64,000 bases of DNA from positions 5,024,001 to 5,088,000 of the forward strand of contig CBDFKD010000002.1 of the NCBI GenBank assembly GCA_965248695.1. The letters are read 5' to 3'. Every line of letters begins with the position of its first letter. Within the stretch, counting starts at the first letter, position 1. The position numbers and the translations under genes are program-made. The notes under the pieces are model-generated. The model was not told the origin of the DNA, ran no database searches, and saw nothing but the letters and a program-made list of their open reading frames with translations. The stretch comes from Acidobacteriota bacterium (GTDB lineage Bacteria; Acidobacteriota; UBA890; WLXD01). Below are positions 1,530-27,805 of this stretch, one piece after another.

Positions 1530-1616
1530 GGCGACTTCGTCAGAACAGGCGATAACCAATGGAGAGATCGGCAAGAGTACAAGCGGCATCGGCGAGAGGT
1601 GACCGTCGTAGGCTCA
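1530..1616 (-). repeat. Degenerate copy of the promoter arm plus tRNA-Glu-like core repeat
   Basis: cgtcagaacaggcgataaccaatggag aligns to cgtcagagcttgcgagatccaacggag (22323); ggcatcggcga aligns to ggcaacggcga; gtaggctca aligns to gtagcccca at equivalent spacing. Confidence 0.6.
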
Positions 1617-1628
1617 GATCCGCGGGGA

Positions 1629-3557
1629 CTAGCCGTGGCGCATCTGCAAGAGCTCGCCGACGGCGCGGTGAGCCTGATCGATGGCGATCTCGGTCATGGC
1701 CCGTGCGCCGGTGTCGGAGTTGGCGATGGCGATCCGGCCACGAGGATGCCGGGCGGTGACCCAAGGGGCACGCTCGGGCGGCACCTCATCGGGCCTCCAC
1801 GCGATCTGACCCGTCTTCGGATCGAGGCCTTTAGCATAGCCGTGCGGCCAGCGGTTCACCGTGATGGCCTCGATGTCGCGCGCCGGGTCGAAGCCTCCGG
1901 CGGACAGTATCCGGCCGAGCTGGTCCCTGATCTTTCGCTCGAAGGTCGCGAACGTCGTCGCCAGCAGACCATGGCGCGCGGCCTTCCACTGCTCAGCCAC
2001 GGACCGCCCGCGGGCCTCCGGTACGAGGGGAACGCGCCACATGCGCACGACGATGGGCTCCTCGGGCGTACCAGCGTGTCGGTAGTTGCCGATGCTGATG
2101 GGTGGCGGCACATTCACGTTCTCGAAATAACTCCCCGGGCAGCGCACCCTGCTCACACCGAGCCTGGCGAAGGCGGTCCAGTTGCGGATCAGGACGTTGG
2201 TGTAGACAAGGGGCGACTTGAGTGCGTTCGATAGCGCCTGTTTTTGAGTATCCGGCAGCTCCTCGCAGATCAAAGGGATCACGGCGTTGTAACAGGCGAG
2301 CACGCAACGACCGGCGCGAACGCGCCGGGCGTGGCCGTCGCGGACGTAGGTGACCTCGACCTCCTTGGCGGTTCGCCGATCGCCACGGTGAGCTACCCGC
2401 ACCGCTGTGCTCTCCAGACGCACGCGGACAGCCGAGCCTTCCCGATCGAGCTTGCCGTAGTCGAACGGAGCGTCGACGATGTCCTCCATCGTGCTGCCGG
2501 GAGCGACCTCTGGGATCAGCGACCGGACGATCAGACGCGCGATCGACGCGTTGCCATCCGGAAACTGGAAGAAAGCACGCTCCTCGCGGTTATCATCGGC
2601 ACCATCATCGTCGTCGCCGAGCCCCAGCCCGGTGGTCCCAGGCCAGCGGCCGGCGCCGAGCCAGGCGGGGACGCCATCGAGGCCGATAGTCCAACCGCCG
2701 GAGGTCTCGAGGAAGGAGATTGCCTCGCGACCTATCTTGGCCACCTTCAAGAGAAAGTCTTCGTAGCTCGTGTTGCGAAGAAACTCGACCTTTTCCTCCA
2801 AGCTGAGGTGTGCCAGGTAATCGATGTTCGGCTCGTGGAGTCTTACAAGGTCATCACGTGCCGTTTCGGACAGGGGCGCGCGCGCCAGGAACTCGCGCCA
2901 AGAGGGCTCGCCTTCGCCTACCAGCAGCCGATCGGTGCCGAACGTTTCGCGGTCGAAGAAAACCGATCTGCGCAGGCCAAGTGAGCTGTACAGATCGCTA
3001 TCGACGAATTCGGAGTAACGGCTTACGTCGATGCCAATCCCGCGGATCAGGCGCTGGGCTCCTTCACCGTACTCGTTCAGGTTGGAGATAAAAATCGTGC
3101 CGCCATGTGACAGGAACATCCGACCGTCGAGCCGGAACTCGTTGCGCTTGGCATGACCGCCGAAGTCGTCGTGGTTGTCGAGAATCAGGATGCGGGCGTC
3201 GGGAACCGCTTCCTGGTAGAACCACGCCGCTGCGAGGCCGCTGAGGCCACCGCCAACCACGACCAGATCGTAGAGCTCACCCGTCTCCTCCGCGTTGTCC
3301 CAGCGCACGCCTTCGACAAGCTGGTGGGCAACCTCGTAGGAGCCGTCGTGGCTGCCGCGCATGCCGGTACGGATGGGTGGGTACGCGTCGGCGAGGGTCT
3401 GTGAGACCCCTCCCGGAGCCTCAGGGCTCGCCAAGGCGTTCGTCTGCGCCCACGGGAACGTGAGACTGCCGCTTAGCGCAACGCTGACACCGGAGACGAA
3501 GTCGCGACGGTTAATCTCCCGGTGCATCCCGAGATCACGATCATCACTGCTGGACAT
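1629..3557 (-). CDS. Tat-exported FAD-dependent oxidoreductase, spermidine dehydrogenase (SpdH)-like
   Basis: INRRDF Tat motif, YPPIRTGMRGSH, VVGGGLSGL FAD motif, LDNHDDFGGHAKRNE, ITVNRWPHGYA. Start moved to ATG 3557. Confidence 0.85.
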   Translation of the reverse strand: MSSSDDRDLGMHREINRRDFVSGVSVALSGSLTFPWAQTNALASPEAPGGVSQTLADAYPPIRTGMRGSHDGSYEVAHQLVEGVRWDNAEETGELYDLVVVGGGLSGLAAAWFYQEAVPDARILILDNHDDFGGHAKRNEFRLDGRMFLSHGGTIFISNLNEYGEGAQRLIRGIGIDVSRYSEFVDSDLYSSLGLRRSVFFDRETFGTDRLLVGEGEPSWREFLARAPLSETARDDLVRLHEPNIDYLAHLSLEEKVEFLRNTSYEDFLLKVAKIGREAISFLETSGGWTIGLDGVPAWLGAGRWPGTTGLGLGDDDDGADDNREERAFFQFPDGNASIARLIVRSLIPEVAPGSTMEDIVDAPFDYGKLDREGSAVRVRLESTAVRVAHRGDRRTAKEVEVTYVRDGHARRVRAGRCVLACYNAVIPLICEELPDTQKQALSNALKSPLVYTNVLIRNWTAFARLGVSRVRCPGSYFENVNVPPPISIGNYRHAGTPEEPIVVRMWRVPLVPEARGRSVAEQWKAARHGLLATTFATFERKIRDQLGRILSAGGFDPARDIEAITVNRWPHGYAKGLDPKTGQIAWRPDEVPPERAPWVTARHPRGRIAIANSDTGARAMTEIAIDQAHRAVGELLQMRHG

Positions 3558-3789
3558 GGGTCCTCCGGATTCTCTGACGCCGTTGCTGCGCGGACCGTCG
3601 GTTCTCGAGTCCCTAGCGATTCCTCTCGTGTCCAAACTCTACCGTTCCGGAGCCTAACGCCCAGTTGGGCTGAGTGCCACGATCGTAGGAGGTGCGCTCG
3701 TTGGCGGGGGTTCCTTGAGTGGAAGCGGCCATGACGGCAACGTCGTGATCGCGATAGGCTCCGACGCCATGATCGCCATACGAACCGAT

Positions 3790-4548
3790 ATGGACTTCAC
3801 CGACAAGCGAGTTCTAGTAACGGGTAGCAGTCGGGGTATCGGGTTTGCGGTTGCCAGAGCCTTTGTCGACGCCGGCGCCCGCGTCGCCATCAATGGCAGA
3901 ACAACGCACTCCGTGAGCGCCGCCATGGAGAGACTGGACGAGGGTGCGCGCCTGGCCGCAGCGCCCGGCGATATCGGAACCGTTCCGGGCTGCGAGTCGG
4001 TAGTGAGCACTGCGAACGACACCTTCGGCGGCCTCGATGTTCTGGTGAACAGCGCCGGTATCGTGTCGGCCAAACCCATCGAGGACAGCGACGAGGGAAT
4101 GTGGGACGCTCAACTCGACGTGAACCTGAAGGGCACCTTCTTCTGCTGCCGCGCGGCATTGTTCGCACTACGCGAGTCCAGCGGCAACATCGTCAACATG
4201 GCCTCGGATGCCGGGCTGATGGGGTTTGCAGGGGTCGCCGTGTACTGCGCATCGAAAGCAGGGGTCGTCAACATGACCCGCGCCATGGCGTTGGAGGTCG
4301 CGCCAGACGTACGCGTCAACTGTGTCTGTCCGGGCTATGTCGATACCGACATGATCCGCCGAGACAACATCGACAAGAAGGATGATCCGGCCGCAGCCGA
4401 GCAGAGGATGATCGACTACGCGCCGATGAAGCGCATCGCAACGCCCGCCGAGATCAGCCAGGCGGTTCTCTATCTGGCTTCATCCGAAGCGCGTTTCGTC
4501 ACGGGTGCGGCGCTAGCGATTGATGGCGGCGTGACCGCTGGCCGTTGA
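3790..4548 (+). CDS. SDR family NAD(P)-dependent oxidoreductase
   Basis: TGSSRGIG, NSAG, YCASK, NCVCPG motifs. Confidence 0.9.
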   Translation: MDFTDKRVLVTGSSRGIGFAVARAFVDAGARVAINGRTTHSVSAAMERLDEGARLAAAPGDIGTVPGCESVVSTANDTFGGLDVLVNSAGIVSAKPIEDSDEGMWDAQLDVNLKGTFFCCRAALFALRESSGNIVNMASDAGLMGFAGVAVYCASKAGVVNMTRAMALEVAPDVRVNCVCPGYVDTDMIRRDNIDKKDDPAAAEQRMIDYAPMKRIATPAEISQAVLYLASSEARFVTGAALAIDGGVTAGR

Positions 4549-4578
4549 GCTCCGGTCTGGCTCGCCGAAGAGTGTTTC

Positions 4579-5988: not shown

Positions 5989-6209
5989 GATGGGTGCCTT
6001 CTGCTCACGACCTCGGCATCGAAGAATAAACAACTCGGCCAGCAAGCGCGGCTTTTCTCACCCCGATGCAGCGGGCCGAGTACACTGACGCCGCGCTCGA
6101 TGCGGTGAACCGGACGATACCGTCTCGCGAAGCCACCGGAGATCGCGGCACTGTTCGCCCCCGGTCGGGACGCCAGAGTCGCCGCCAACCAAGAAGGGGA
6201 ATCGCTCGC

Positions 6210-6971: not shown

Positions 6972-6991
6972 AGCGCCCCAAGGGCCAAGAT

Positions 6992-7435: not shown

Positions 7436-7577
7436 CGTTCCTCCCTCAGTCCGCGTCGCTGACATCGGATCCATCTCGCGCAGAAGCGACAATAGGCTGG
7501 AGATCGTCTGATCTCCCTGACCGACTATCACGAATCGGCGAGCACTGGCAGTGTGACGATGATCGCCCGTGCGGCCT

Positions 7578-9614
7578 CTAGCCGTCGTCGCCGCTGTGAC
7601 GTTCGAACCAGGCCATAGCGTGGAGCACCTTCGCGATCAGCTGGCTGGGACGCGCGGAGATGTTGTGGGAGGCCCCCGGGATCTGCACCAGCGCGGTCTC
7701 GATACGCCGCAGCTTCAGCGCGTGGTAGAGCTGCTTGGACTCCGACAGCGGCGTGCGCAGGTCGGCCGTGCCCACCATCACCATCGTCGGAGTCGTTATG
7801 TTGGCCACCAGCGACAGCGGCGAGAACTGCCAGTACCCCATGGGGTTTTCCCATGGGGCGCCCGGATAGCGGTAGTGCATGTAGCCGTCGTAGTTGTCGG
7901 CCACCAGGGTCTTGCTGATCCAGTTCACCACAGGTTTGGTGACCACCGCGGCACGGAACCGGTCGGTCTTGCCGACGATCCAGGCGGTCATGATGCCGCC
8001 GGCGCTGCCGCCGGTGACGTAGAGGCGGTCCTCGTCGATGTAACCGCGCGCGACCACGTCGTCGACCACCGACATGAGGTCGTCGTAGTCGTTGCCCGGG
8101 TAGTCGTGATACAGCAGGTTGCCGAACTCCTCGCCGTAGCTCGTGCTGCCGCGTGGGTTCGAATACACCACCACGTAGCCGGCGCTGGCGTAGAGCTGGA
8201 TCTCGGCGGAGAAGCGGTCGCCGTAGTTGGAGATCGGGCCGCCGTGAATCTCCAGTAGCAACGGGTAACGGTGCGCCGGGTCGAAACCGGGCGGGTGGAC
8301 GATCCAGGACTGGATGCGGCGGCCGTCGTGGGAGGACTCCGTCCAGATCGGCTCGGCCGGGGCGATGCTGCGCTGGCTCTTCAGGTCGGCGTTGAGCGCC
8401 GTAAGCAAACGGGGTTCGCCGGCGGGCTCCACCAGCATGACTTCGCTGGGGTCGTCAGAGGTCGAGTGGGTGAAGGCCACGGTGCCGTCGCGCGCTACGG
8501 AGAAATTGCCGCCTCCGTACGGCCGCCCTACCGACGACGTGCCACCGAGCCCCTCGGCGACCGATTCGAAGCGGCCTTCCGGCGTCGTGAACCCCAGCTT
8601 CGTGATCCCTTCGTCGTCGTAGGCGAAGAAGACCCCGCTGCCGTCTGCAGCCCACACCGGCCCATTGACGGAGCGGTCTAGCTCCTCGAGCACGGCGCGA
8701 GGCCTGGAGCCGTCGGCGCCCATGAGGTGCAGGTCGCTGGTCTGGTACGTCTGGATGCGATCGTCGAAGCCGACGTAGGCGACGAGTGAGCCGTTAGGCG
8801 CCGGCGCCGGGCTGCCGTCGGGGCCTCGGCGGTCGGTGAGCTCGGTGATGGCGCCGGTCGCCAGCGACACCGTGTAGATCTCGCTTTCTCGCCGCTCGTA
8901 CTCCCAGTCGCGGCTCCGGTTTCCGGTGAAGAGCAACGAGCTGCCGTCGGCTGTCCACACAGGCCCCTGGTGATGGAAGTCGTCAGTGGTGAGCTGGCGC
9001 GCGGAGCCGCCGTCGGCCGGGATCACGAACACATGGTTGAAGCCTGGCTCGATGAAGCCCCGGCCGTCGGCCTCGTGACGCACCCGTGTCTCCACGCGCG
9101 GCGGATCCGCCCACTCCGCCCCGGCCGGCCGGGGTGGCATCGAGGTTAGCTTCGGCGGCGTGGCGGGTATCAGCATCGAGAACGCGATCTGGCTGCCGTC
9201 CGGCGACCACGCGATGCTGCGCGGCGACCGCTCGAGCTGCGTGAGCCGCGCCGATTGCCCAGTGGCCACCCAGTAAAGGTAGATCTCGGTGCCGTCCTCG
9301 CCCCCGGCCACGTAGGCGATCCGTGACCCGTCCGGGGACCAGCGCGGAGACGACTGTGTGCCCTCGCCGCCTACGAGCGGCCGATTGTCAGTGCCGTCGC
9401 TGCGCACCATCCAGATCCGCCCCTCGCGACGGTCGCGCATGATGCTCATGCCGTTGCGCACGTAAGCCACCCAGTCGCCTTCGGGCGATATCTGCACGTC
9501 GGAGGCATACTCGATCTCGAACACGTCGAGAGCGGAGAACGGCTGCTGCTGGGCAACGACGAGCAACGCCGGCAACAGCGAAAGCGAGCCGGCCAACGCC
9601 AGGTACCTGATCAT
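7578..9614 (-). CDS. Secreted S9-family peptidase (acylaminoacyl/dipeptidyl peptidase)
   Basis: Signal peptide, WSPDG propeller repeats, IHGGP, NPRGS, GGSAGG nucleophile elbow, catalytic D and H. Confidence 0.92.
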   Translation of the reverse strand: MIRYLALAGSLSLLPALLVVAQQQPFSALDVFEIEYASDVQISPEGDWVAYVRNGMSIMRDRREGRIWMVRSDGTDNRPLVGGEGTQSSPRWSPDGSRIAYVAGGEDGTEIYLYWVATGQSARLTQLERSPRSIAWSPDGSQIAFSMLIPATPPKLTSMPPRPAGAEWADPPRVETRVRHEADGRGFIEPGFNHVFVIPADGGSARQLTTDDFHHQGPVWTADGSSLLFTGNRSRDWEYERRESEIYTVSLATGAITELTDRRGPDGSPAPAPNGSLVAYVGFDDRIQTYQTSDLHLMGADGSRPRAVLEELDRSVNGPVWAADGSGVFFAYDDEGITKLGFTTPEGRFESVAEGLGGTSSVGRPYGGGNFSVARDGTVAFTHSTSDDPSEVMLVEPAGEPRLLTALNADLKSQRSIAPAEPIWTESSHDGRRIQSWIVHPPGFDPAHRYPLLLEIHGGPISNYGDRFSAEIQLYASAGYVVVYSNPRGSTSYGEEFGNLLYHDYPGNDYDDLMSVVDDVVARGYIDEDRLYVTGGSAGGIMTAWIVGKTDRFRAAVVTKPVVNWISKTLVADNYDGYMHYRYPGAPWENPMGYWQFSPLSLVANITTPTMVMVGTADLRTPLSESKQLYHALKLRRIETALVQIPGASHNISARPSQLIAKVLHAMAWFERHSGDDG

Positions 9615-9625
9615 GGGCTGATCCC

Positions 9626-10231: not shown

Positions 10232-10285
10232 CTACGGGTCCGTCGGCACGAGTCGCTGCAGCTCCTCGAACCAGTTGGTGATGGC
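10232..10285 (-). pseudogene. Remnant of a kinase-beta-propeller gene C-terminus (AITNWFEELQRLVPTDP*)
   Basis: Fills the whole intergenic gap; 42/49 nt identical by eye to 19934-19982. Confidence 0.75.
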
Positions 10286-11482: not shown

Positions 11483-11484
11483 CG

Positions 11485-12585: not shown

Positions 12586-12590
12586 GCGAT

Positions 12591-12620: not shown

Positions 12621-12649
12621 CTTATCAAGGAGGCATAGGTGACCGGCTG

Positions 12650-12679: not shown

Positions 12680-12690
12680 GGTTCGGTTGC

Positions 12691-13866: not shown

Positions 13867-14187
13867 TCAGACCACTACCCCTATCAATCAACCCGACAAG
13901 CCAGGTAGTCGATATCCTGCAACCTCCGCGCCGCCCGATGGTCCGGACCAATCCGACGAGCAGACCCGAGCCAGGCTCGTTGTCGGATCAGGGTACCTGA
14001 GACCTCCTCGGCGCGCGGCAAAAGCCCCTGATTGCGTCGCAAGCGGCATGAGATACGACGCTGAAGGAAGGAGATCGGGGACGAGTGCACGGCGCCCGGG
14101 CATCAGATAGGCTCTGGAGCCTTCCGCGCTAGGCTCCCCACGCCATACTTGCGCGCCGCCGATGTCTTCCAACTCCTCCGCGCCGAG

Positions 14188-15764
14188 ATGAACCTCCGCG
14201 ACCGCGACACTAATCCGGTACAGCCGACGGGCTTGGATTACTCACGAAAGCCAATAGAGGACTACGTCGACCTGATCGATGCGGCGGTCGTCTATGAGGT
14301 GGCGACGAGGACCCCGCTCGAGCTCGCCGGTAACCTGTCGGCGCGACTCGGCAACCGGATCCTGCTGAAGCGCGAGGACCTACAGCCGATCTTCTCGTTC
14401 AAGCTCCGCGGTGCATACAACAAGATCGCATCGCTCTCGCAGCAGGCGCTGGGCGCTGGGGTCATATGCAGCTCGGCCGGTAACCACGCGCAGGGCGTGG
14501 CACTCGCCGCGCGGCGGAAAGGCACGCGGGCGGTAATCGTCATGCCGGTCACGACACCGAGCATCAAGATCGATGCCGTCAGGGGGCTGGGAGGCGAGGT
14601 GATTTTGCATGGCGACACCTACGACGACGCCTACGGCAGGGCACGGGAGCTCGAGAAGATCGACGGTCTGACGTTCTCCATCCATTCGACGATCCCGCGG
14701 TTATCGCCGGCCAGGGCACCATCGGCAAGGAGATCCTCGAGCAGGCGGACGAAGCCGTGAGCGCCGTCTTTGTTCCCATCGGCGGTGGTGGGCTCATCTC
14801 GGGAATCGCAGCCTATATCAAGGCGAAACGGCCAGAAATCCGCATGATCGGCGTCGAGCCGGAGGATTCGGCGGCGATGGGAGACTCGGTCGCCGCCGGT
14901 GAGCGCGTCACCCTGGAGCATGTCGGCAGCTTTGCCGACGGCGTCGCCGTCAAGCAGGTGGGCGAGGAGACCTTTCGACTCTGCCGGGAGCTGGTCGACG
15001 ATTTCGTCACCGTCGATACGGATCAGATCTGTGCCGCCATTCGCGACATATTCGAGGACACGCGCTCGGTCGTAGAGCCTGCCGGAGCGCTGGCGACCGC
15101 CGGCGCGAAGCAATATCTCGCCGAACACGCAGCGCGGGACGAGACGGTCGTGGTGATCAACTGCGGCGCCAACGTCAACTTCGACCGGCTAGGCCACATC
15201 GCCGAGCGCGCCGCCGTCGGTGACCAGCAGGAGATGTTGCTGGCCGTCGAGATCCCGGAGAAGCGCGGCAGCTTCAAAGCATTCTCCGAAGCCGTCGGCC
15301 GGCGCGGCGTTACCGAATTCAACTACCGCTACAGCGACCCGAAGATCGCGCACATCTTCGTCGGCATCGAACTGCGTCGTGGACCGCGGGAACGAGCGGA
15401 GCTGATCGAGACGCTGCGGGGGCTCGGGTATCCGCTCGTCGACCTGAGCGATGACGAGTTGGCGAAGCTCCACATCAGGCACATGGTCGGCGGCAGGGCA
15501 GCGAACCTCGAGAACGAACGGCTGTTCCGCTTCGAGTTTCCGGAACGTCCCGGTGCCCTACTTGACTTCCTGACCGCGATCGGCGCGAACTGGAACGTTA
15601 GCCTCTTCCACTACGGGAACCACGGCTCCGACCACGGTCGGGTCCTCGCCGGCATCCAGGTGCCCAAAGAGGACTCGGACAAACTCGAGGCACACTTCAC
15701 CGAGCTGGGCTATCCGTACTGGGAGGAGAGCGACAATCCGGCCTACGCGATGTTCCTGGCTTGA
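14188..15764 (+). pseudogene. ilvA: Biosynthetic threonine ammonia-lyase, split by a frameshift near 14677
   Basis: [18 protein letters not shown] and SAGNHAQGV in one frame; VPIGGGGL, FADGVAV and the regulatory domains in another. ttc-tccatccattcgac lacks one base of the expected F-I-H-P-F-D. May be a sequencing error. Confidence 0.88.
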
Positions 15765-17459: not shown

Positions 17460-17504
17460 CGCGAACCAGCGGACCTCAACTCTTCCCCAAACCCGCGGAC
17501 CGGA

Positions 17505-17921: not shown

Positions 17922-17972
17922 CGCATCCCCCGAGTCCCTGCTGTCTATCGCCCGGTAACGGGCGAGCGCCGC

Positions 17973-18004
17973 AAGCGTATCGTCAGCGCCGCCGAGTTCC
18001 AACG
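17973..18004 (-). promoter_or_regulatory. 32-bp repeated arm, sigma70-like TTGGAA-N17-TACGCT
   Basis: aagcgtatcgtcagcgccgccgagttccaacg; 30/32 identical to 19769-19800. Confidence 0.75.
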
Positions 18005-18168
18005 AGTCATTGCCAACTCACAAGCGCTCACGTATTTTGCCGCAGTCGCTCGGCTAGTGCCCGGCTGCTGCCTCGATCTGGCAGCGCGATGGCGTGGCGG
18101 CAGATCGTGGGCTGGTACCTACACGAGGACATGGAGCGGCTTCGACCTGTTGGCGCCATGGCCAGCGC

Positions 18169-18855: not shown

Positions 18856-18930
18856 GCCGCGAAGTCTAACGAACTGTCGGTCCTCCAGTCAGCGGGCACG
18901 GCGGTGATGAAGCTACCGAGCTCCGATGCT

Positions 18931-18960
18931 AGTAGCCCCAATGGCGAAGATGTTGAACAC
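18931..18960. repeat. att-like copy of the tRNA-Glu 3' end
   Basis: agtagccccaatgg is 13/14 identical to 27684-27697; continues cgaagatgttgaac like ccaggatgttgaac at 22403. Confidence 0.75.
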
Positions 18961-19043
18961 CACGCAGAGTTCGTGGCGCGGCTCGCGAAGGCGGGGTAGG
19001 CGCTACTGACGTTCGCGCGACCCCAGGCGTTGCATGTTGCGGT

Positions 19044-19628
19044 TCAGCGAGCCGGTCGCAACATCGGCACGAACGGTGGTGACGTTCCCACTTGGACCTC
19101 GCCGAGCACCTCGAAGCCGTGGCGCTGATAGAGGGAGACGTTTCTCGGGTTCGTCGATTCCAGATATGCCGGCGTCTGATCATGGTCGCATTGCTGCGCG
19201 GCATACTTCATGAGCGCGCCCCCGATCCCCTTTCCCCGATACGCCGGGTCAACCCCGATGAGCGGCAGATACCAGTGCGGCTCGGCAGGGTGGTATCCAG
19301 CCAGCTGCTCGAACACTGCGTAGAGGTCGGTGCGGACCGACTCCGAGACGGTACTCTCAATGACCTCGCCCAGAGCTTCCTCATCAGGGTGCACATCGGG
19401 CGGCAGCCAGAGGGCGGTGCCGGCGCATTCCCCGGTGCAGTGGGCACTACCGTGGGCGAAGGAGCTGCCGGCAAACGCACGCGCGAACCGAGGCATGTTC
19501 GTCAGATACTGATGCGGATCCGGATAGCACCATCTCGCCACCGGATCGGCGACGAACGCCAGTACGATCGCATCGATTGCCGGACTCTCGTCGGCCTGAG
19601 TCGTCGTTCTGATCTCAGGGATCTCCAT
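19044..19628 (-). CDS. GNAT family N-acetyltransferase
   Basis: PHWYLPLIGVDPAYRGKGIG, AYLESTNPRNVSLYQRHGF; GGAGG RBS. Confidence 0.9.
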   Translation of the reverse strand: MEIPEIRTTTQADESPAIDAIVLAFVADPVARWCYPDPHQYLTNMPRFARAFAGSSFAHGSAHCTGECAGTALWLPPDVHPDEEALGEVIESTVSESVRTDLYAVFEQLAGYHPAEPHWYLPLIGVDPAYRGKGIGGALMKYAAQQCDHDQTPAYLESTNPRNVSLYQRHGFEVLGEVQVGTSPPFVPMLRPAR

Positions 19629-19768
19629 GGCTTCCTCCGGAGGCTGATCTGGTTCCCGTGTCCGCGATCGCGCGGATCGCGCTCCAGCTTGTCTAGTGGT
19701 CTCTCGCACTGACTGGCGCGAACAACGCAGCCGTGAAAGACCTACGAAGCAGGACGATGGGCGCCCAG

Positions 19769-19992
19769 AAGCGTATCGTCAGCGCCGGCGAGATCCAACG
19801 CCAGGTGTAGAGAGGCTATCGGGCGGCAGTTGAATTGAGGTAGTAGGCCCAATCACCCCGAGTTGGAACCGGATCTAGGAAGAGCTCCGAGGGCTGGATC
19901 GGCTACTTGCCTGATTCGGAGGGCTGAGCGCGTTACGGGGCCGTTGGCACGAGCCGCTTCACCTCCTCGAACCGGGTGGTGACGAGCGTCAC
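19769..19992. repeat. Complete cassette junction: promoter arm (19769-19800), tRNA-Glu-like core (19842-19852), recombinase-like tail (19840-19914, +), kinase C-terminal remnant (19933-19992, -)
   Basis: TTGGAT-N17-TACGCT on the minus strand; agtaggcccaa core; plus-strand translation VVGPITPSWNRI*EELRGLDRLLA*; minus-strand translation VTLVTTRFEEVKRLVPTAP*. Confidence 0.75.
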
Positions 19993-20202
19993 GCAATGGC
20001 TACTGGCCCGCATCTGCGCGCGGCTTTCGCACTCCTTCAGTTCCTAATACTCGAAGGACTTGCCGAGGAGTCGCGGGCCTGACTTCTACTGTCCAGGCAT
20101 AGACGGGCCGAGCCACACGAACCGGTACTCCCACGAGCAGCGAGAGCAGCTACGTATCTCCGACGACGGTGTGCTGGGTCCGCTTGAACCGATTCGCTTG
20201 TC

Positions 20203-22203
20203 TTACCGTATCTCGCTCGTACTGGAGGCTCTTCGCCGGGCGCGGCTTCGAACAAGCAGCTGCTCCCGCACCGCTCGATGTGCCTCGTCGATAGCCGAGT
20301 CGGTGTGTGTCGAGGCAGCGGCATCGGAGTTGGCGATGGAAATCCGACCGAATCGCCGGCTCCCGACTACGCACGGCCGATCGTCGGGTGTGAACAGCGC
20401 CCACTCGATGGGATCGTCCAGGGTGTTGTAGCTGTATGCATAGCCGTGCGGCCAGCGATTCACCGTGATCGCTTCGATGTCGCGAGCCGGGTCGAAGCCC
20501 CCACCCTCCAGCATTCGACCGAGCTGGTCGCGGATGTTGCGCTCGAATGTCTCGAAGCTCGTGGCCAACAGATTCTCTCGCCCGATGCGGTGCTGCTGCT
20601 TCTTCGGGTGTCCAGGAGCGCAGGGCGTTCTGGACATGTGCAGAATCATCGGGTCCTCGGGTGACCTGGAGGGTTGGTACTCACCGAACTGCACGGAGCG
20701 GCCAAGGCTGACCCCGCTGTGGTACATCCCCGGCGCGGTCACCCGTGAGACTCCGAGGTTCTTGAAGGCCTTCCAATCTCGGGTAAGGACGTTGGTGGAG
20801 ACGAGCGGCATCTTGACACCATACTTGAGCGCCACCTTCTGCTCGTCGGACATCTCTGGGCACAGGTGTGGGATGACCCCGTTCCAGCAGCCCATCACAC
20901 AGTGACGCGCCCGTACCTTCTCGGCCTTGCCAGCGCGTAGATAGGTAATCTCGACTTCGCGGGCCACATCGGGATCGCCCAGGTGCCGGACGGAGACGCC
21001 CATGCTGTTGAGGCGAATCCTGGCGTCGGAACCCTCGCGGTCTAGGCGGTCGTACCTGAGTCGCGACGTCATCGAGTCGTCCAGCGAGGTGCCGGGAAGC
21101 GCGTCGGGAATCATGGCGCGAACCAGCAACCGTGCCAGCGTCGCGTTGCCGTCTGGAAAGTGGATGTCCGGTCGATCGTCCCACTCGTTCTCGCGACCGT
21201 GTTGCCCGCCGCCGATGTGGGCAAGGGGGCCCACCAGGGGAAGGGTCTCGAGGTTCATCCCCTGGAAGCCGGGATAGCCCTGGGCCCATGCGTAGAGTGC
21301 CGGATGGGCGTCGATGCCAACGCAGAAGCTACCCTTCGGGCGGTCATCGAAGAACGGGATCACATCCGAGTGAACCTTGGCCAGATCGAGCAGAAAGTCC
21401 CGGTAGCTGATGCGTGCCAGGCGCTCCTTCTTGTCCGCATCCGACAGTCCGGGCATGGTGTCCGGGTTCGCATCGTCGTCGTAGAGCCGCGCGATGTCCC
21501 TCTGCGCCTCCGGAGACATCGGGGTCTTTGCGAGCCACTCGGCCCATGCACCCGATTGCCCGCCGCGTCCCATCACCAGCCGATCCTCGCCGAACACCTC
21601 CTTGCTGAAGAACGTGGCGTTGCCCAGGCCCAGCGATCCGTAGAACCTCCTACCCGCGGCGCTGGTGGCATAGGCGCTGTCGATGTCGATGCCGACCGCA
21701 GCGAGAAGCGTCCTGCAGACGGCGCTGTAGTGGCCCACAGACTCGAGGTACGACGTACCGCCGGGCAGCATCAGCGTACGGCCTCGATAGGTCATCTCGT
21801 TGCGCTTGGCATGGCCGCCAAAGTCGTCGTGATTGTCGAGGACAAGGACACGCGCACCGCGGCCAGCCGAGGTCAGGAAGAAATAGGCTGCCGAAAGCCC
21901 GCTCAGCCCCCCACCGACCACCACGCAATCGTAGCGCTCACCGGTATCGGCGGCATCGGTCCAAGAGTTGCCGTCGCGAAGCGCATGGCCGGCCTCGAAG
22001 GAACCGGGGTGGCTGCCGCGCATTCCGGTCAGGGCCGGGGGGTAGTAGTCCTGCGCGAGTGGCGCATAGGGCTTGCCCTCGCGTGCCGACGACCAGCCCG
22101 GTGCGATGAGCGCCCCCCCGATCGCAACCCCCACGCCGTTAACGAAGTCGCGCCGGGTGATATCACGGTGCATCCCTAGATCACGATCCTCACTTGTGGG
22201 CAT
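20203..22203 (-). CDS. Tat-exported spermidine dehydrogenase-like FAD oxidoreductase (second paralog)
   Basis: ITRRDF, YPPALTGMRGSH, LDNHDDFGGHAKRNE, ITVNRWPHGYA. Confidence 0.87.
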   Translation of the reverse strand: MPTSEDRDLGMHRDITRRDFVNGVGVAIGGALIAPGWSSAREGKPYAPLAQDYYPPALTGMRGSHPGSFEAGHALRDGNSWTDAADTGERYDCVVVGGGLSGLSAAYFFLTSAGRGARVLVLDNHDDFGGHAKRNEMTYRGRTLMLPGGTSYLESVGHYSAVCRTLLAAVGIDIDSAYATSAAGRRFYGSLGLGNATFFSKEVFGEDRLVMGRGGQSGAWAEWLAKTPMSPEAQRDIARLYDDDANPDTMPGLSDADKKERLARISYRDFLLDLAKVHSDVIPFFDDRPKGSFCVGIDAHPALYAWAQGYPGFQGMNLETLPLVGPLAHIGGGQHGRENEWDDRPDIHFPDGNATLARLLVRAMIPDALPGTSLDDSMTSRLRYDRLDREGSDARIRLNSMGVSVRHLGDPDVAREVEITYLRAGKAEKVRARHCVMGCWNGVIPHLCPEMSDEQKVALKYGVKMPLVSTNVLTRDWKAFKNLGVSRVTAPGMYHSGVSLGRSVQFGEYQPSRSPEDPMILHMSRTPCAPGHPKKQQHRIGRENLLATSFETFERNIRDQLGRMLEGGGFDPARDIEAITVNRWPHGYAYSYNTLDDPIEWALFTPDDRPCVVGSRRFGRISIANSDAAASTHTDSAIDEAHRAVREQLLVRSRARRRASSTSEIR

Positions 22204-22314
22204 AGCCTAGCCGCTCCAGGTTCTCAAACGCGGGAAGCGTGCGAAACGTCGACTCGTTACCAGGCTCGACCGAAGTGCAAATCGCATCCAGACTCTGACG
22301 TCGGCGAGCAAGGG

Positions 22315-22420
22315 AAGCGTATCGTCAGAGCTTGCGAGATCCAACGGAGGGAGTAGGAAGAGGCTGCGGGCAACGGCGAAACGGAGGTGGTAGCCCCAAC
22401 GGCCAGGATGTTGAACCACA
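22315..22420. repeat. Promoter arm plus tRNA-Glu 3'-end duplicate (att-like junction)
   Basis: 22315-22346 is 29/32 identical to 19769-19800; caacggcgaaa is shared with 27666; gtagccccaacgg at 22390-22402 is identical to 27685-27697. Confidence 0.85.
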
Positions 22421-22439
22421 TATCCAGTACGTAGCGCGC

Positions 22440-22505
22440 CCCACCCGCTTGTCGAGGATCTCGGTCAGGATGTCGCGATAATCGATCGTGATCTCTAGAT
22501 CCCTG
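22440..22505 (-). pseudogene. C-terminal fragment resembling DUF1501-family proteins
   Basis: Translates RDLEITIDYRDILTEILDKRVG; no upstream gene body. Confidence 0.45.
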
Positions 22506-22608
22506 CACCGTCCGCATGAAAGGCTGTACCGGCCAGCGAGGCGCGTCATCTCGACCCGTCGCGGCCGTCAAGCGGAGCGGCCTGCCTGTCCATTGTAGGC
22601 TGTGTCTG

Positions 22609-23037
22609 ATGCAGATCCACCGGGAGACGCTGGAGCGCGAGACCGCGCCCGATACCGACATTCATGACCTCACCGACGAGGTGCGGGCCGTCATCGAGCG
22701 CTCGCGTGTGAAGCAAGGCCAAGTGCTCGTCTTCACGCCAGGCTCGACCGCCGGCGTCACCGTCATCGAGTACGAGAGCGGCGCCGTGGCCGATCTAAGG
22801 CGGGCGATCGACCGGCTGGCGCCCACCGGCGAGCCCTACGATCACGACGCCCGCTGGGGCGACGGCAACGGTTACTCGCACGTGCGCGCCGCGCTGCTCG
22901 GCCCCTCGATCACCGCGCCGATCGTCGACGGTAGGGCGGTTCTAGGCACCTGGCAGCAGATAATTCTGTGCGATTTTGACAACCGGCCGCGAACCCGGAA
23001 AATCGTCGTGCAGGTGATGGGCGTCGTGGTTCCGTAG
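22609..23037 (+). CDS. yjbQ: YjbQ/UPF0047 family protein (secondary thiamine-phosphate synthase)
   Basis: PGSTAG, YDHD...NGYSHVRAALLGPS, LGTWQQI, DFDNRPR. Confidence 0.92.
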   Translation: MQIHRETLERETAPDTDIHDLTDEVRAVIERSRVKQGQVLVFTPGSTAGVTVIEYESGAVADLRRAIDRLAPTGEPYDHDARWGDGNGYSHVRAALLGPSITAPIVDGRAVLGTWQQIILCDFDNRPRTRKIVVQVMGVVVP

Positions 23038-23245
23038 CCTTGCCGGCCGCTTAGTCAACCCCCTCTCTCACCACCCGCCCGCAAAGCTAAAGCTAACGAA
23101 CGAGCTGGGCGGGCGGAGGTAGTCGATTCAGCAGGGTAGGTGTAATTGCGCGGCAGTCCGTTGTTCGGGATGACGCCGGATGGCATCACCTAAGCCGCTG
23201 TGTTCCATGCCTTGTCATTGGTTGCCCGGGTAATCTCCAGGAATT

Positions 23246-23641
23246 TCAGCTTTCGGCATCGTCCGGGAGAGCGTATCCACCCGATTCGTCGTTAACTTCG
23301 TCGCCAACCAGCGGCGGGTTGAAAATAGCAATGGCGCGCACTTCGGTATCCAGGTTGTAGCGGTGACGCTCATGTTTGTCGAAAGCATAGAAGACTCCCG
23401 GCTCCAGTCTATAAACGTCCCCGGTCTCGATGATCTCGACAGTGCCGGTTCCCTCGAGAACGTAAACGGCCTCGATGTGGTTCTTGTGCTCGACCTCGAG
23501 GTCGATGCCTGCCGAGCCGACGGCCTCGGTTACGGTGAAGCCCAAGTTGTCGGACGCGACCGCCAGGCGGGCGCTCACGAAACCATCCGCTTCGACGAAA
23601 TTCGGCGTCCCCTTCAATTGTGCAAATGTACGAAGAATCAT
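23246..23641 (-). CDS. ectC: Ectoine synthase-like cupin (solitary EctC)
   Basis: MILRT...SARL...DNLGFTV, HKNHIEAVY, PGVFYAFDKHERH, FNPPLVGDEVNDESGGY. Confidence 0.8.
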   Translation of the reverse strand: MILRTFAQLKGTPNFVEADGFVSARLAVASDNLGFTVTEAVGSAGIDLEVEHKNHIEAVYVLEGTGTVEIIETGDVYRLEPGVFYAFDKHERHRYNLDTEVRAIAIFNPPLVGDEVNDESGGYALPDDAES

Positions 23642-23726
23642 CCTGAGGTTCCCTTTGCTGGTTTGATATTCGTAGCTGGCACTATCGCTGGCGAAGTCTT
23701 CCGGCAGCACGTTGATCGAGACATCA

Positions 23727-23842
23727 CGATCGAGAGTGGAACTCCGGGGGCTGCATCGGCTGCTTGCATGATTCGGTGAGGCCGGCTGAGCGCGCTACTT
23801 GTCTGTCGGCGCGAGCCGGTTCAGCTCGTCGAAGAAGTTAGT
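23727..23842. repeat. Recombinase-like tail plus kinase C-terminal remnant (partial junction)
   Basis: 23739-23776 is 33/38 identical to 19882-19919 (ELRGLHRLLA*); minus strand 23795-23842 reads TNFFDELNRLAPTDK*. Confidence 0.8.
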
Positions 23843-24965
23843 TCGTGAGAACCAATCCTCGGCCGACGAGCTTTATGGGATCGGCTCCGGGCTTCGGAAC
23901 GAACTTGCTCAACCATCCGCCGTCCCAGCTGGCGACATAGACGTTGCCGTCCTGGTCCACGTCCATCTGGTGTGGACGCCCGAGGCCACCAGGAAAGCCG
24001 CCCCGCGTCCCGCCGAACGCACCCCAGTGGTACTGGAGGACCCCGTCCAGGTTGTACCTGAGGATCCGGTTCACTGCCGCAGAAATCACCCAGACCGCGT
24101 CATTCTCGTCGATGAAGATTCCGACGGGATCGGTGACGTCGGGCCACTCCTCGATGAACTCGCCGTCTTCCGTAAAGACTTGGATGCGGTTATTGGTCCG
24201 GTCGCCGACGTAGATGCGGTGATCGCGGTCCACGGCAACGCCGTGGATGAGGTCGAACTGTCCGGGGCCGCTCCCGACCGAGCCGAACTCCGACACGAGC
24301 TCGCCGGCCGCGTTGTACCTGGCGATACGACCGTTCTGGTAACCGTCCCCGAGCAGAAAGTCGCCGTCCGGGAGGAAGGTCATCACCGAGGCCTGGCCGA
24401 AGTCGAGCGGTCCCGGGTTCTTGTTCGCCCGTGCCTTCTCCCCGCTCTGGCGCGGGTTGGGGTCGAGGAGCCGCATCACGATCTGTTTGCCGTCGTTGGT
24501 GAACTTGATGACCTGCTCGTGGATGTCCCTGGTTCCTCCGCCGCGCTCGACGAGCCAGATGTGGCGCTCCGGGTCGTAGGGGCTGATGTAGACCTGGTGG
24601 GGAGTGTTGAGCATGGTGTCCCACTGGGTCCAACGCTCGACGATGTCCCCGTTCCCATCGACGACCACCATGTAGTTGGAGCTGTTCGGCCGCTCTTCGC
24701 CTTCGGCGTTCCGGTCGCCCCACACTGCAACGATAATCCGGTTCGGATTGTCAGCCGCCACACCAGAGACCTGACCCCAGGTCCACTCCTCGTCGTGGTC
24801 TGGCGCCGGCTTCCACCAGCCTGCCACCGGATCGTATCCTCCGGTACGGTCGTCCCCGCCCTTGATGACCGCCTCCGGTGCGGCCTGGTCCTCACCAGCG
24901 CAGGCTGGGAGTAGCGCCAGCCCAACGGCGAGGAAGAGGGCCACGTCCATGCGCTTTAGTTTCAT
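23838..24965 (-). CDS. NHL-repeat lipoprotein (amidating lyase-like beta-propeller)
   Basis: LPAC lipobox, PHQV, GDGYQNGRI, FDLIHGVAVD, YVGDRTNNRIQVF. Confidence 0.85.
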   Translation of the reverse strand: MKLKRMDVALFLAVGLALLPACAGEDQAAPEAVIKGGDDRTGGYDPVAGWWKPAPDHDEEWTWGQVSGVAADNPNRIIVAVWGDRNAEGEERPNSSNYMVVVDGNGDIVERWTQWDTMLNTPHQVYISPYDPERHIWLVERGGGTRDIHEQVIKFTNDGKQIVMRLLDPNPRQSGEKARANKNPGPLDFGQASVMTFLPDGDFLLGDGYQNGRIARYNAAGELVSEFGSVGSGPGQFDLIHGVAVDRDHRIYVGDRTNNRIQVFTEDGEFIEEWPDVTDPVGIFIDENDAVWVISAAVNRILRYNLDGVLQYHWGAFGGTRGGFPGGLGRPHQMDVDQDGNVYVASWDGGWLSKFVPKPGADPIKLVGRGLVLTN

Positions 24966-25003
24966 CGTCAAATCCACTCCCGAAAAGGCTTTCATAGACG
25001 CCG

Positions 25004-25990
25004 TGGAGTTGACCCGCTTCCGTGGACACCTTATGGCTAACGCCAAAGGAGTCTGCGATGCGAAGAACACGACCGCCTTATCCGCCGGAGTTTCGCCGGC
25101 AGATCGTCGAGCTAGCGCGGGCAGGACGCAGCGTGCAGGAGCTCGCCGAGGAGTTCGAGCCCTCGTACTGGACGATCCGTACATGGATCAAGCAGGCGGA
25201 TCGAGATGACGGGCTTAGCGCGGCTGGCCTGAGTAGCCAGGACAAGGAAGAACTACGGCGGCTACGCCGGGAAAACCGCCAGTTGAAGACGGAGCGGGAG
25301 ATCCTGGCAAAAGCCGCGGCCTGGTTCGCTCGGGAGACCGGCGCAGTACCCAAGAAGTCTTCGGGTTCGTGAGAGCTCACCAGGCCTGCTATCCGATCGC
25401 CACGATGTGCCGAGTGCTGGAGGTCTCCACCAGCGGCTACTACGCGTGGCGACAACGCCCTAGCAGTATGCGAGCACGACAGGATGCACAGCTGCGTGAG
25501 CAGATCGAGACGATCCATCGACTTAGCCGTGCGACCTATGGCGTGCCTCGGGTACACGCGGAACTGGCCGCCGACGGCGTTCGGGTGGGGCGCAAACGCG
25601 TGGCACGGCTGATGAGCCAGGCGGGGCTGGAGGGTGTCAGCCGCCGCCGTCGGCTGCGCACGACGCGCCGCGGTACTGACGCGCAGCCGGTGCCCGATCT
25701 GGTGAAACGTGACTTCGCGGTCGGTGCACCCGATCGCCTGTGGGTTGCCGACATCACGTACGTCTCTACGTGGTCGGGGTTCTTGTACCTGGCGGTGGTG
25801 ATGGATGCCTTCAGCCGGCGGGTGGTGGGCTGGTCGATGGCCAACCACCTGCGTACCGAACTGGTGCTTGAGGCGCTCAACATGGCGATCTGGCAACGCC
25901 GACCTGAGAGCGTGATCCACCACTCTGATCAGGGCACGCAATACACCTCGATCGCCTTCGGCCACCGCTGCAAGCAGCTCGGTGTACGTC
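25004..25990 (+). mobile_element. IS3-family element, truncated on the right by a second IS
   Basis: TG-starting left IR (tggagttgacccgcttccgtggacacc), orfA and orfB; orfB stops after HSDQGTQY...GVR. Confidence 0.88.
25058..25372 (+). CDS. IS3 transposase OrfA
   Basis: YPPEFRRQIVEL HTH; ELRRLRRENRQLKTEREILAKAAAWF zipper. Confidence 0.9.
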   Translation: MRRTRPPYPPEFRRQIVELARAGRSVQELAEEFEPSYWTIRTWIKQADRDDGLSAAGLSSQDKEELRRLRRENRQLKTEREILAKAAAWFARETGAVPKKSSGS

Positions 25991-25998
25991 TGACCTGA
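25369..25998 (+). pseudogene. IS3 transposase OrfB, truncated before the catalytic Glu
   Basis: YGVPRV, LWVADITY and HSDQG present; the DNAxxE segment is missing. Confidence 0.85.
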
Positions 25999-27250
25999 CC
26001 CCCGAAAACGGATCCGGATGTAATCTCACGATCTGGGTCAAGAACGGGAGGTCAGAATGCCGAGTAAGAGGCACAGCGCCGAGCAGATCGTACGCAAGCT
26101 CCGGGAGGCTGAGGTGGAGCTGGCTCGAGGGGCGACGGTCAAGGATGCCTGCCGCAAGCTAGCAATCACCGAGCACACCTACTACCGGTGGCGGCGAGAG
26201 TACGGCGGACTGAAGCTCAACCAGGCCAGAAAGCTCAAGCAACTGGAGAAGGAGAATGCCCGGCTCAAGAGGCTGGTGGCGGAAAAGGAACTCGACCTGT
26301 CGATCCTGAAGGAAGTGGCGGAGGGAAACTTCTGAGCCCAGCTCGGCGGCGAGAGGCGGTGGCACATGTACGGGGGCGGCTGGGCGTCTCGGAGAGGCGG
26401 GCGTGTCGGGTACTGAAACAACCACGCACGACACACCGGTACGTGCCAAGAGAGCCGCAACAGGAGCAGATTTTGACGGAGCGGATCGTGGATTTAGCCC
26501 GACAGTACGGGCGCTACGGATATCGGAGGGTGACAGCGTTGCTGCGCATGGAGGGCTGGTCCGTGAACCACAAACGAGTGCAGCGTATCTGGCGGCGCGA
26601 AGGGCTGAAAGTACCGAGAAAACAGCCCAAACGAGCACGGCTGTGGCTGAGCGATGGCTCCTGCATCCGGCTGCGCCCACAGCACCGGGATCATGTCTGG
26701 GCGTATGACTTCCTGCACCACCGGACGCACGACGGTCGGGCTATGAGGCTGCTGACGATCGTCGATGAGTACACACGAGAAAGCCTGGCGATCCATGTAG
26801 CACGGAAGCTCAACTCTGAGGACGTGCTGGAGCAGCTCGGGAGGTTGTTCGTACACCGGGGCATACCTGAGCACATCCGGTCGGATAACGGACCAGAGTT
26901 CACCGCCGAGGCGGTTCGCGACTGGCTGGGCCGGTTGGGCGTGGGGACGCTGTTCATCGAGCCGGGCTCGCCGTGGGAGAACGGTTACGTGGAGAGCTTC
27001 AACGGCAAGCTACGCGACGAGCTGCTGGATGGAGAGATCTTCTACACGCTCAAGGAGGCAAAGGTTCTGATCGAGAGATGGCGTCAGCACTACAACCGCA
27101 TGCGACCGCACAGCTCGCTGAGCTATCGGCCGCCCGCACCCGAAGCGACGTTGTTGAAGCCGGCTGCGCTCCGCTTCGCCGGCCTCAACAACCTCTTGTC
27201 AGCACCGAGTTACTGAGATAAGACATGGTACTAACCGCGGGGTCAGGTCA
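25991..27250 (+). mobile_element. Complete IS3-family element (IS407-like group), 1260 bp
   Basis: Terminal IRs TGACCTGACCCC / GGGGTCAGGTCA; GGGAAAC frameshift window near 26323; no target duplication (cgtc | aggg). Confidence 0.92.
26057..27216 (+). CDS. IS3 transposase OrfAB (-1 programmed frameshift)
   Basis: OrfA 26057-26335; OrfB with YGYRR, WAYDF, IRSDNGPEF, PGSPWENGYVESFNGKLRDE. Confidence 0.92.
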
Positions 27251-27519
27251 AGGGCGGGACGGGAGACGCGGACACGCGCACACTTCGGGAGCGACAGGGC
27301 TAGCCGGGACATTCGTTCTCTCTTGGCTTTGTGCCAGGGCTAGCCCACATCCTTGGCGGACGACCGAGGTCACCTGGTTAGCAGCTCTAGGGGCGCTTGA
27401 CCAAGAAAGCTTCGGTGCGGCGGATAGCCGCAAAGTAGCCGATCCTCAGAACACCCGTCGGAGGGCGCATAGTGTAGTTGATTGCCGGGCGGGGGATGAG
27501 CGAGCGAAGGGCGGTTTCG

Positions 27520-27581
27520 GCATACCCAGTGGGGTCGAGGATCTTGTCGCAGCTGTGTCGAGTTCCGGGTTCGATGGCACT
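27520..27581 (-). pseudogene. Decayed Ser/Thr kinase gene N-terminus (AIEPGTRHSCDKILDPTG)
   Basis: Matches the register of xxEPGTRLGxYxILxPLG; lies just downstream of the arm copy next to tRNA-Glu. Confidence 0.5.
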
Positions 27582-27607
27582 GCCGGGCGGAGGTGGAAAT
27601 GCGCCCG

Positions 27608-27685
27608 AGATCCATCGCCAGCGGAGGCGAGATCCAGCCGGTGGGGCAGGGGATGCACCGGAGGACAACGGCGAAATAGAGGGAG
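27608..27685. repeat. tRNA-proximal copy of the arm (promoter -10 box degenerate)
   Basis: atcgccagcggaggcgagatcca aligns to atcgtcagcgccggcgagatcca; caacggcgaaa shared with 22371. Confidence 0.75.
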
Positions 27686-27759
27686 TAGCCCCAACGGGAT
27701 TTGAACCCGTGCCGCCGGCTTGAAAGGCCGGTGTCCTAACCTGGCTAGACGATGGGGCC
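27686..27759 (-). tRNA. tRNA-Glu (TTC); CCA not encoded
   Basis: GGCCCCA/TGGGGCT acceptor stem, CCGGC-CTTTCAA-GCCGG anticodon arm, ACGGG-TTCAAAT-CCCGT T arm. Confidence 0.95.
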
Positions 27760-27805
27760 ACCCTGGAAAACCGCTGTGGCGAGGCCGGGTCACTAGGTAG
27801 AAGTG

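Follow-up and report, generated by a model that had tools for sequence, protein, structure and literature searches.

The stretch analyzed here (the window) comprises 64,000 nucleotides (nt) of a 5.9-Mb Acidobacteriota genome assembled in two contigs (G000:C2:5024001-5088000), and the subject of this analysis is a tRNA-Glu(UUC) gene whose last 13 nt (the core) recur in direct orientation among short segments of unrelated genes. Both the tRNA-Glu gene and its upstream neighbor, tRNA-Lys(UUU), are encoded on the minus strand, and the DNA downstream of tRNA-Glu therefore lies to its left, where genes for a GNAT acetyltransferase, an FAD/NAD-binding oxidoreductase, a yjbQ-like protein, an ectoine synthase-like cupin (ectC), and an NHL-repeat protein, followed by insertion sequences (IS), are found from left to right (Table 1). 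An earlier reading of this DNA made without database searches, hereafter the sequence-only reading, proposed that cassettes of one to few genes, each with its own promoter, had been serially added at tRNA-Glu by a recombinase acting in trans, in the manner of an integron. Two of its descriptive claims hold as stated: the segments bounded by co-oriented cores span 0.9, 2.5, and 5.3 kb, and they are free of integrases, given that no integrase domain was detected in the 30 open reading frames (ORFs) scanned at positions 1-28787, two of which encode IS3-type DDE transposases.

On the plus strand, the core reads GTAGCCCCAACGG (the final 13 nt of the tRNA in reverse complement), and exact copies are found at 27685-27697, within the tRNA gene, and at 22390-22402, where the sequence-only reading had correctly placed a co-oriented 13/13 match. 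The copy which that reading placed at 18931 (13/14) is real as well, but starts at 18932 and matches at 12 of 13 positions (18932-18944). With up to two mismatches allowed, the window contains 8 matches against 1.45 expected, a count reached by none of 100 shuffled sequences. The pattern GTAGCCCCAAYGG occurs three times in the whole genome (18932, 22390, and 27685), always in the same orientation and within 8.8 kb, and the reversed control pattern is absent genome-wide. A fourth core, previously given as a 10/11 match at 19842, is a genuine copy at 19843-19855 but a diverged one, agreeing with the tRNA at just 9 of 13 positions and with the consensus of its own subfamily, conserved in the related genomes G002 and G004, at 12 of 13.

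When the spacer adjoining the core is included, the tRNA unit aligns significantly with 22357-22402 (z = 11.3) and with 19811-19855 (z = 5.7), as do these two copies with each other (z = 8.6), and none of 1000 dinucleotide shuffles reached the score in any of the three comparisons. The tails on the other side of the core, at 22403 and 18945-19012, are also related (z = 6.5; 0 of 1000 shuffles), so that the junction alignments, which the sequence-only reading had proposed to compare with shuffled DNA, stand out from it. A fifth junction (1530..1622), for which a degenerate core at 1608 and an arm at 1530 had been claimed, is not supported: nhmmer yielded no arm match there at E ≤ 10, and 295 of 1000 shuffles reached its score against the tRNA unit. 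A 12/13 match on the minus strand at 47298-47310 lacks any flank of the unit and is probably due to chance. Contigs from four public short-read runs of one sample (X7-X10) span all core junctions with 0 differences, so the structure is not an assembly artifact, although the sample may be the source of the genome itself.

The genomes available for comparison are those of uncultured bacteria: every close relative found for a window protein was labeled as a metagenome-assembled genome (MAG) of uncultured Acidobacteriota, and the FAD/NAD-binding oxidoreductase had 591 relatives in the genome-contig search. The module consisting of spacer, core, and tail is present in 5 of 5 genomes of the genus (including G000) and in none of 6 genomes that represent four other genera in the family. 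Alignment of 16 module copies from four genomes distinguishes two tail types, of which tail 2 (the type found at 19856) shows more than 90% conservation across ~80 nt in G000, G002, and G004. In G000, the module profile recovers the three window copies and one degenerate copy (C2:5552792-5552886), with no others.

Among these relatives within the genus, the core is the exact point at which left and right flanks have been exchanged, and all four attB/attP/attL/attR-like combinations exist: a flank designated F2 is joined through the core to the tRNA in G002 and to tail 1 in G003 (~80% identity over 113 aligned columns), whereas the spacer is joined to the tRNA in G000 and G003 and to tail 1 in G000, G002, and G004. 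Three right flanks, namely tail 1, tail 2, and the upstream arm of an integrase gene, meet the core within ~3 nt of one another. In G003, the FAD-oxidoreductase unit joins a tRNA exactly at the core, and the 5.3-kb segment of G000 is missing, with the breakpoint at 22402. The tRNA joined in this case is a Glu/Lys hybrid pseudo-tRNA (G003:C22:43545-43664, L014), and no intact tRNA-Glu(UUC) was seen in the G003 assembly. The hybrid combines the 3' half of tRNA-Glu with the 5' half of tRNA-Lys, joined within their near-identical anticodon stems, and is called by ARAGORN as tRNA-Gly(tcc).

More broadly, gene order next to tRNA-Glu differs among relatives, as the sequence-only reading anticipated. 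The downstream flank is different in all 8 relatives viewed (G002-G005 and G007-G009, with G001, where a cupredoxin gene lies in another context, uninformative on an empty site), and in the outgroups G005, G007, G008, and G009, the 6 kb downstream of tRNA-Glu contain neither arm nor tail, and synteny with the left side of the window is absent. Independently of the junctions, ~22 kb downstream of tRNA-Glu in G002 (G002:C9:2059453-2081208) are 94-98% identical to a distant segment of G000 (C2:3814947-3832758), as against 74-81% for the syntenic core blocks of the two genomes, which indicates, as judged from sequence identity, a recent horizontal exchange.

Integrases are associated with tRNA-Glu junctions elsewhere in the genus. 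G004 carries a 22-kb island in which a 42-nt repeat of tRNA-Glu lies beside the gene for a 450-aa tyrosine integrase (L023:9765-11117), and a 401-aa tyrosine integrase of G002 (L119:3395-4600), 52% identical to that of G004, starts 112 nt from a 12/13 core; in G004:C15 and G003:C25, the integrase upstream arm persists together with no more than the first ~105 integrase codons. The tRNA-Glu 3' end is thus a used integration site in this genus, in agreement with the sequence-only reading, and we infer that such integrases made the particular junctions described here.

The nature of the repeats surrounding the core changes the picture drawn from the window alone. The homologous arms claimed earlier are present next to the two internal units at 19728-19810 and 22270-22356, are weak at 27565-27636 (E = 1.1), and do not extend to 1530. 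The arm is an element of ~85 nt, and a profile of it detects 33 copies in the genome (nhmmer, E < 1e-3) that are not tied to tRNA genes, only four of them in the window (17930-18008, 19728-19810, 22270-22356, and 29501-29585). On the gene strand, a conserved GTTGGAYC box is separated by an interval of constant length but variable sequence from a GATAGGCT/GATACGCT box, which is followed by a leader. An ATG opening MEPGTKLGPYEI, the conserved start of a kinase, follows 16 of the 33 arms under a strict pattern, and one gene behind an arm encodes a protein kinase (Pfam Pkinase, 1.6e-43). About half of the arm copies precede Ser/Thr-kinase (STK) paralogues starting with MEPGTKLGPYEI, and the remainder precede unrelated genes. 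The arm therefore appears to be the promoter and 5' leader of the STK family; a simple sigma-70 consensus scan, with 2 sites against 1.9 expected and none at an arm, did not flag it, so that the promoter reading is drawn from position and conservation. The dispersed element may mark a regulon or be a promoter of a specialised sigma factor. A promoter-like arm does precede each unit, as the sequence-only reading supposed, but these are generic putative promoters of the family, not specific to cassettes.

The tails have a corresponding origin. Their family comprises 26 genome copies (E < 1e-3), 3 of them in the window, and on the gene strand consists of the last codons of the STK family (NWFDELKRLVPTDP and stop), followed by a conserved 3' untranslated region (UTR); the tails are thus related, as had been noticed, but as dispersed ends of STK genes and not as att arms. 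Genome-wide, the three core copies are all linked to the tRNA, whereas the arms and tails are scattered. Two further interpretations of the tails were rejected: as decayed tRNA bodies, their scores were reached by 258, 34, and 682 of 1000 shuffles, and, by eye, the candidate stem of a structured RNA in tail 1 gains mismatches without compensatory changes. Rfam scans of the window and five dispersed arm loci returned nothing beyond tRNA-Glu and tRNA-Lys.

Each junction is accordingly a composite that reads, in gene direction, STK-gene end, 3' UTR, tail, 13-nt core, spacer, and promoter of the next gene, and in G002 it is intact between two STK-family genes. When each arm is paired with the next downstream family tail, seven of the resulting slots (2.6-4.7 kb) hold a kinase and four hold none, three of the latter lying in the window with DAO and NHL genes, the FAD oxidoreductase, and NHL and IS, respectively. 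Gene-end relics follow unrelated genes at 10232-10274, 19918-19973, and 23784-23833, as if foreign genes occupied former kinase-gene slots; at the first of these positions, G003 possesses a complete STK gene of which just the last codons remain in G000, and kinase-domain fragments adjoin ectC and NHL. The NHL gene itself stops at a TAA (23838-23840) just before the C-terminal motif of the family (23784-23833), which continues in the next frame, a configuration suggestive of a single-base frameshift in what was once a gene of the kinase family. With the arms and tails representing the 5' and 3' ends of one gene family, the repeating unit would originally have been of a single gene kind, and the array appears to have once been a repeated STK-gene unit into which the unrelated genes came as later replacements. 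This removes the main reason for postulating independently captured cassettes.

Taken together, these observations lead us to favor, with moderate confidence, the explanation that 18932-27697 represents what erosion has left of a site-specific accretion at the tRNA-Glu(UUC) 3' end. Under this scenario, elements moved by the tRNA-Glu-specific tyrosine integrases of the genus would have inserted, or been amplified, at the 13-nt core, each insertion event leaving behind a copy of the tRNA end. The repeated unit would have consisted of the core, the spacer, the promoter-like arm, one STK-family gene, its 3' UTR, and the tail. The kinase bodies would later have been deleted or replaced by the FAD oxidoreductase, GNAT, yjbQ-ectC, and NHL genes, with IS3 insertions, loss of the integrase, and ordinary rearrangement shuffling the neighboring genes. 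The tRNA repeats are most likely scars of mobile elements once inserted there, and the array in G000 is probably fixed rather than a working cassette system.

Several observations weigh against accretion by integrases. The sequence shared with the tRNA amounts to just 13 nt, with tails that are not significantly tRNA-like, and, across the 16 aligned copies, the core is by eye not clearly more conserved than tail 1. Base composition is not atypical, with a GC fraction of 0.59-0.66 at 18-28 kb compared with 0.61-0.70 elsewhere in the window. The 13 tyrosine (PF00589) and 2 serine recombinase matches of G000 all lie outside the window, which contains neither an integrase nor a remnant of one, so that past integrase action is deduced from the relatives. 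Among the seven non-tRNA junction copies of G002, three are located within 67 kb downstream of tRNA-Glu and four elsewhere, and hence the module also spreads with kinase genes by duplication. Finally, the G003 bin has a contamination of 8% and the relatives are MAGs, so the gene order of G003 could be partly chimeric.

Some of these points are what would be expected if no site-specific recombinase had been involved, an alternative that we consider rather unlikely. In that case, an STK gene downstream of tRNA-Glu would have been tandemly duplicated together with the sequence preceding it, the final 13 nt of the tRNA included, and unequal crossing-over and the dispersal of kinase paralogues would have multiplied the junction. 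Such duplication accounts for arms and tails that belong to one paralogue family, for the junction between tandem kinase genes in G002, for the copies at loci unlinked to the tRNA in relatives, for a core conserved no more than tail 1, and for an array without an integrase in G000. It does not readily explain why the same few nucleotides are the meeting point of three unrelated right flanks with at least three left flanks, in all four combinations, or why the sequence upstream of an integrase gene is among these right flanks; moreover, the core is missing between other tandem kinase genes of G000, the only other tail-to-arm pair found (C2:1510329-1510620) being without it.

Synteny with G003 bears on the model of the sequence-only reading, taken here as a system active today, in which integrase-less cassettes of one to few genes with their own promoters are excised and inserted, as in an integron, at att sites of the tRNA-Glu type by a recombinase whose gene lies at another locus. 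Most window genes are found on G003:C22 in a different order, and the modules are 93-96% identical between the two genomes, compared with 81-92% for the flanking core-genome blocks, a difference that counts in favor of accretion. The 11 long synteny blocks have 21 ends inside the window, of which only one (22402) falls on a core; a short block of 64 nt begins at 18932. The expectation that breakpoints coincide with cores holds for the flank exchange among relatives and fails for nearly all of these block ends. The FAD-oxidoreductase block ends 67 nt past the stop codon, 280 nt short of the next core, and the yjbQ block begins 134 nt from a core, and in G003 the ends of the FAD-oxidoreductase, yjbQ-ectC, and NHL modules miss the cores by 67 to 280 nt. 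The block with an S9 peptidase gene (7522-9615; 93% identity) has its limits precisely at the ATG and 56 nt beyond the stop codon, the DUF1989 block starts at its stop codon, and one G003 junction falls inside a signal-peptide coding region. The last of these junctions points to illegitimate recombination, or to duplication followed by loss, and the units exchanged between the genomes are not the core-bounded segments. The S9 peptidase gene, located between the DUF1989 gene and a cupin gene in G000 and elsewhere in G003, has been relocated with gene precision, and no recognisable repeat is found at the ends of the relocated segment.

The sequence-only reading further proposed that excised circles could reveal themselves as core-to-core joints, but none was found in the contigs of runs X7-X10, which drop rare variants and therefore cannot show absence. 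A joint of 23833 to 25990/25991 in the run contigs was not used because its sides are just 22-28 nt and touch two repeat families. In contigs of X7 and X9 (depth 3.8 and 2), 22817 is connected back to 20238 with 18 other letters between, neither end being at a core, which may reflect a tandem or alternative yjbQ/FAD-oxidoreductase arrangement in a co-occurring strain.

A cassette system at work today is in agreement with the small segments between co-oriented cores, the promoter-like arm before each, the high conservation (>90% over ~80 nt) of tail 2 and core in three species, and the presence of cognate-type integrases in the genus, but we regard it as quite unlikely. G000 lacks a close homologue of the tRNA-Glu integrases of G002 and G004 (best tblastn matches, 32.6% over 178 aa and 22.7% over 291 aa), the modules shared with G003 do not end at cores, the arms are generic putative promoters of a gene family, and the integron hallmarks intI, attI, and Pc are absent. 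Serial capture of independent one-gene cassettes by a recombinase acting in trans is likewise not borne out, with arms and tails of a single STK family and one of 21 block ends on a core. There is a similarly slim chance that the ~230-nt module of tail, 13-nt core, spacer, and promoter is a live attP-like site; the kinase and replacement genes would then be integrase-less mini-cassettes, each between two modules, which integrases of the G002/G004 type would excise and re-insert in trans at tRNA-Glu and secondary sites. If true, this would amount to integron-like gene shuffling on att sites derived from a tRNA, every junction contributing a promoter.

That the core and its neighbors are a functional regulatory or RNA element of the kinase intergenic region, its match to the tRNA being coincidental or maintained by gene conversion, would fit the conservation of core and tail 1 (~75 nt) and of core and tail 2 (~80 nt) across species, but is very improbable in view of the lack of an Rfam match, the uncompensated stem mismatches in tail 1 (by eye), the restriction of the module to one genus (5/5 versus 0/6), and the flank exchange at the core, which it leaves unexplained.

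Table 1. Features of the window at and downstream of tRNA-Glu, from right to left.
Feature	Position	Strand	Basis and remarks
tRNA-Lys(UUU), neighbor upstream of tRNA-Glu	27805..27878	-	ARAGORN, Rfam
tRNA-Glu(UUC), anticodon ttc	27685..27759	-	ARAGORN; Rfam tRNA, 66.9 bits; last 13 nt (27685-27697 on +) form the core
tRNA-proximal unit	27565..27684	-	Degenerate arm and STK start relic, 27565-27636 (nhmmer E = 1.1, weak); spacer, 27637-27684
IS3-family element	25991..27250	+	Pfam; 43 full-length genome copies, ≥98% identity
IS fragment or copy (rve/HTH_21), 987 nt	25004..25990	+	Pfam; 6 near-identical long copies in the genome
NHL-repeat gene	23784..24998	-	Pfam; start codon (24998) inferred from G003
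Ectoine synthase-like cupin (ectC)	23246..23710	-	Pfam
UPF0047 (yjbQ-like)	22516..23037	+	Pfam
Tail type 1, relic of STK-gene 3' flank	22403..22470	-	Aligns with 10 other tail-1 copies from 4 genomes
Unit copy upstream of FAD oxidoreductase gene	22270..22402	-	Arm, 22270-22356 (E = 3.8e-15); spacer, 22357-22389; exact core, 22390-22402
FAD/NAD-binding oxidoreductase (SpdH-like)	20203..22203	-	Pfam; 47% identical to paralogue at 1629-3635
Tail type 2 with STK C-terminal codons and stop relic (19918-19973)	19856..19973	-	Conserved in G002 and G004
Unit copy upstream of GNAT gene	19728..19855	-	Arm, 19728-19810 (E = 1.2e-12); spacer; diverged core, 19843-19855
GNAT acetyltransferase	19044..19709	-	Pfam
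Core (12/13) and tail type 1, unrelated left flank	18932..19010	-	Distal, attL-like junction
Further promoter-like arm without core	17930..18008	-	nhmmer E = 2.4e-14
STK C-terminal codon relic downstream of DAO gene	10232..10274	-	Tail-family profile

Two other features of the window stand apart from the junctions. The 987-nt IS piece is 100% identical to a copy in another genus (G007:C1:7331-8317), which suggests a very recent transfer between genera. The threonine dehydratase is represented by two overlapping ORFs (14149-14760 and 14757-15764) that divide the PALP domain between them, and G000 has 87 more nt than G003 at 14115-14201; the split may reflect a frameshift, a pseudogene, or an error of assembly.

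The locus identifies tRNA-Glu as an integration hotspot and plasticity zone in a genus of uncultured Acidobacteriota, and it indicates that att scars can become embedded in, and co-amplified with, the intergenic DNA of an expanding kinase family and so mimic a cassette array. Caution follows for other loci, where repeated arms beside tRNA fragments can be promoters and gene ends of paralogues rather than recombination arms. Should the junctions prove recombinogenic, they would constitute a small, tractable model of trans-mobilized mini-elements.

Integrons combine an integrase gene (intI), an attI site, a Pc promoter, and promoterless cassettes with attC sites that are imperfect inverted repeats. 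The window shares with them a series of small gene units in one orientation, set apart by repeats that resemble recombination sites. It differs in that each unit stands behind its own promoter-like arm instead of a common Pc, that the repeats are direct copies of a tRNA end with family-derived flanks, apparently in place of attC-type hairpin sites, and that there is no attI and no intI: the 30 window ORFs scanned gave no Phage_integrase match, and none of the 13 PF00589 matches of the genome is in the window. The likeness to integrons drawn by the sequence-only reading is replaced by a closer one, to the already described accretion of cis-mobilizable elements (CIMEs).

For accretion of this type, a review (PMC5704250) cites Pavlovic 2004 and Bellanger 2011. 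In streptococci, integrative elements and CIMEs accumulate in tandem at a tRNA 3' end, including segments without integration genes (PMC5704250). The window likewise has co-oriented 3' ends of the target gene bounding segments without integration genes, attP-like internal junctions, and related integrases in the genus. The differences are that no remnant of an integrative and conjugative or integrative and mobilizable element (ICE/IME) is recognisable, that the units are very small (0.9-5.3 kb), that the flanks of the att core come from a chromosomal kinase family, and that mobility is here only putative. The window segments do conform to what defines a CIME in being flanked by att-like sites and devoid of integration and transfer genes, and the only hint of derivation from an autonomous element is the integrase remnants at like junctions in G003 and G004. 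By the standards of genomic islands, one end carries an intact tRNA and the opposite end a direct repeat of the tRNA 3' terminus, and relatives differ in presence or absence with a breakpoint at the repeat (G003, 22402); a cognate integrase, present at junctions of G004 and G002, is not found inside the G000 island.

In Dehalococcoides, several ssrA islands are arranged in tandem on the downstream side of a small RNA gene, with a 20-bp repeat of the 3' end of that gene at their boundaries (PMC3146451). They resemble the present case in the short 3'-end repeat (20 bp there, 13 nt here) with extra conserved sequence beside it; some of them are without an integration module and are discussed as possibly cis-mobilizable or fixed, and the region is highly variable between strains. 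They employ a serine recombinase (DsiB) and the tmRNA, as opposed to the tyrosine integrases of the genus and tRNA-Glu here, and G000 keeps no integration module at all. The tycheposon islands of Prochlorococcus are also linked to tRNA genes and are built by repeated integration, with scattered partial tRNAs and degenerated elements (bioRxiv 10.1101/2020.12.28.424599); tRNA-linked growth by repeated integration with partial tRNAs is common to both, whereas the window belongs to another phylum, has no integrase/replication module of the tycheposon type, and has kinase-family flanks that are particular to this case. On balance of these comparisons, the stretch has the appearance of an eroded and reshuffled genomic island, of a kind already known, resembling the CIME arrays and the Dehalococcoides ssrA islands.

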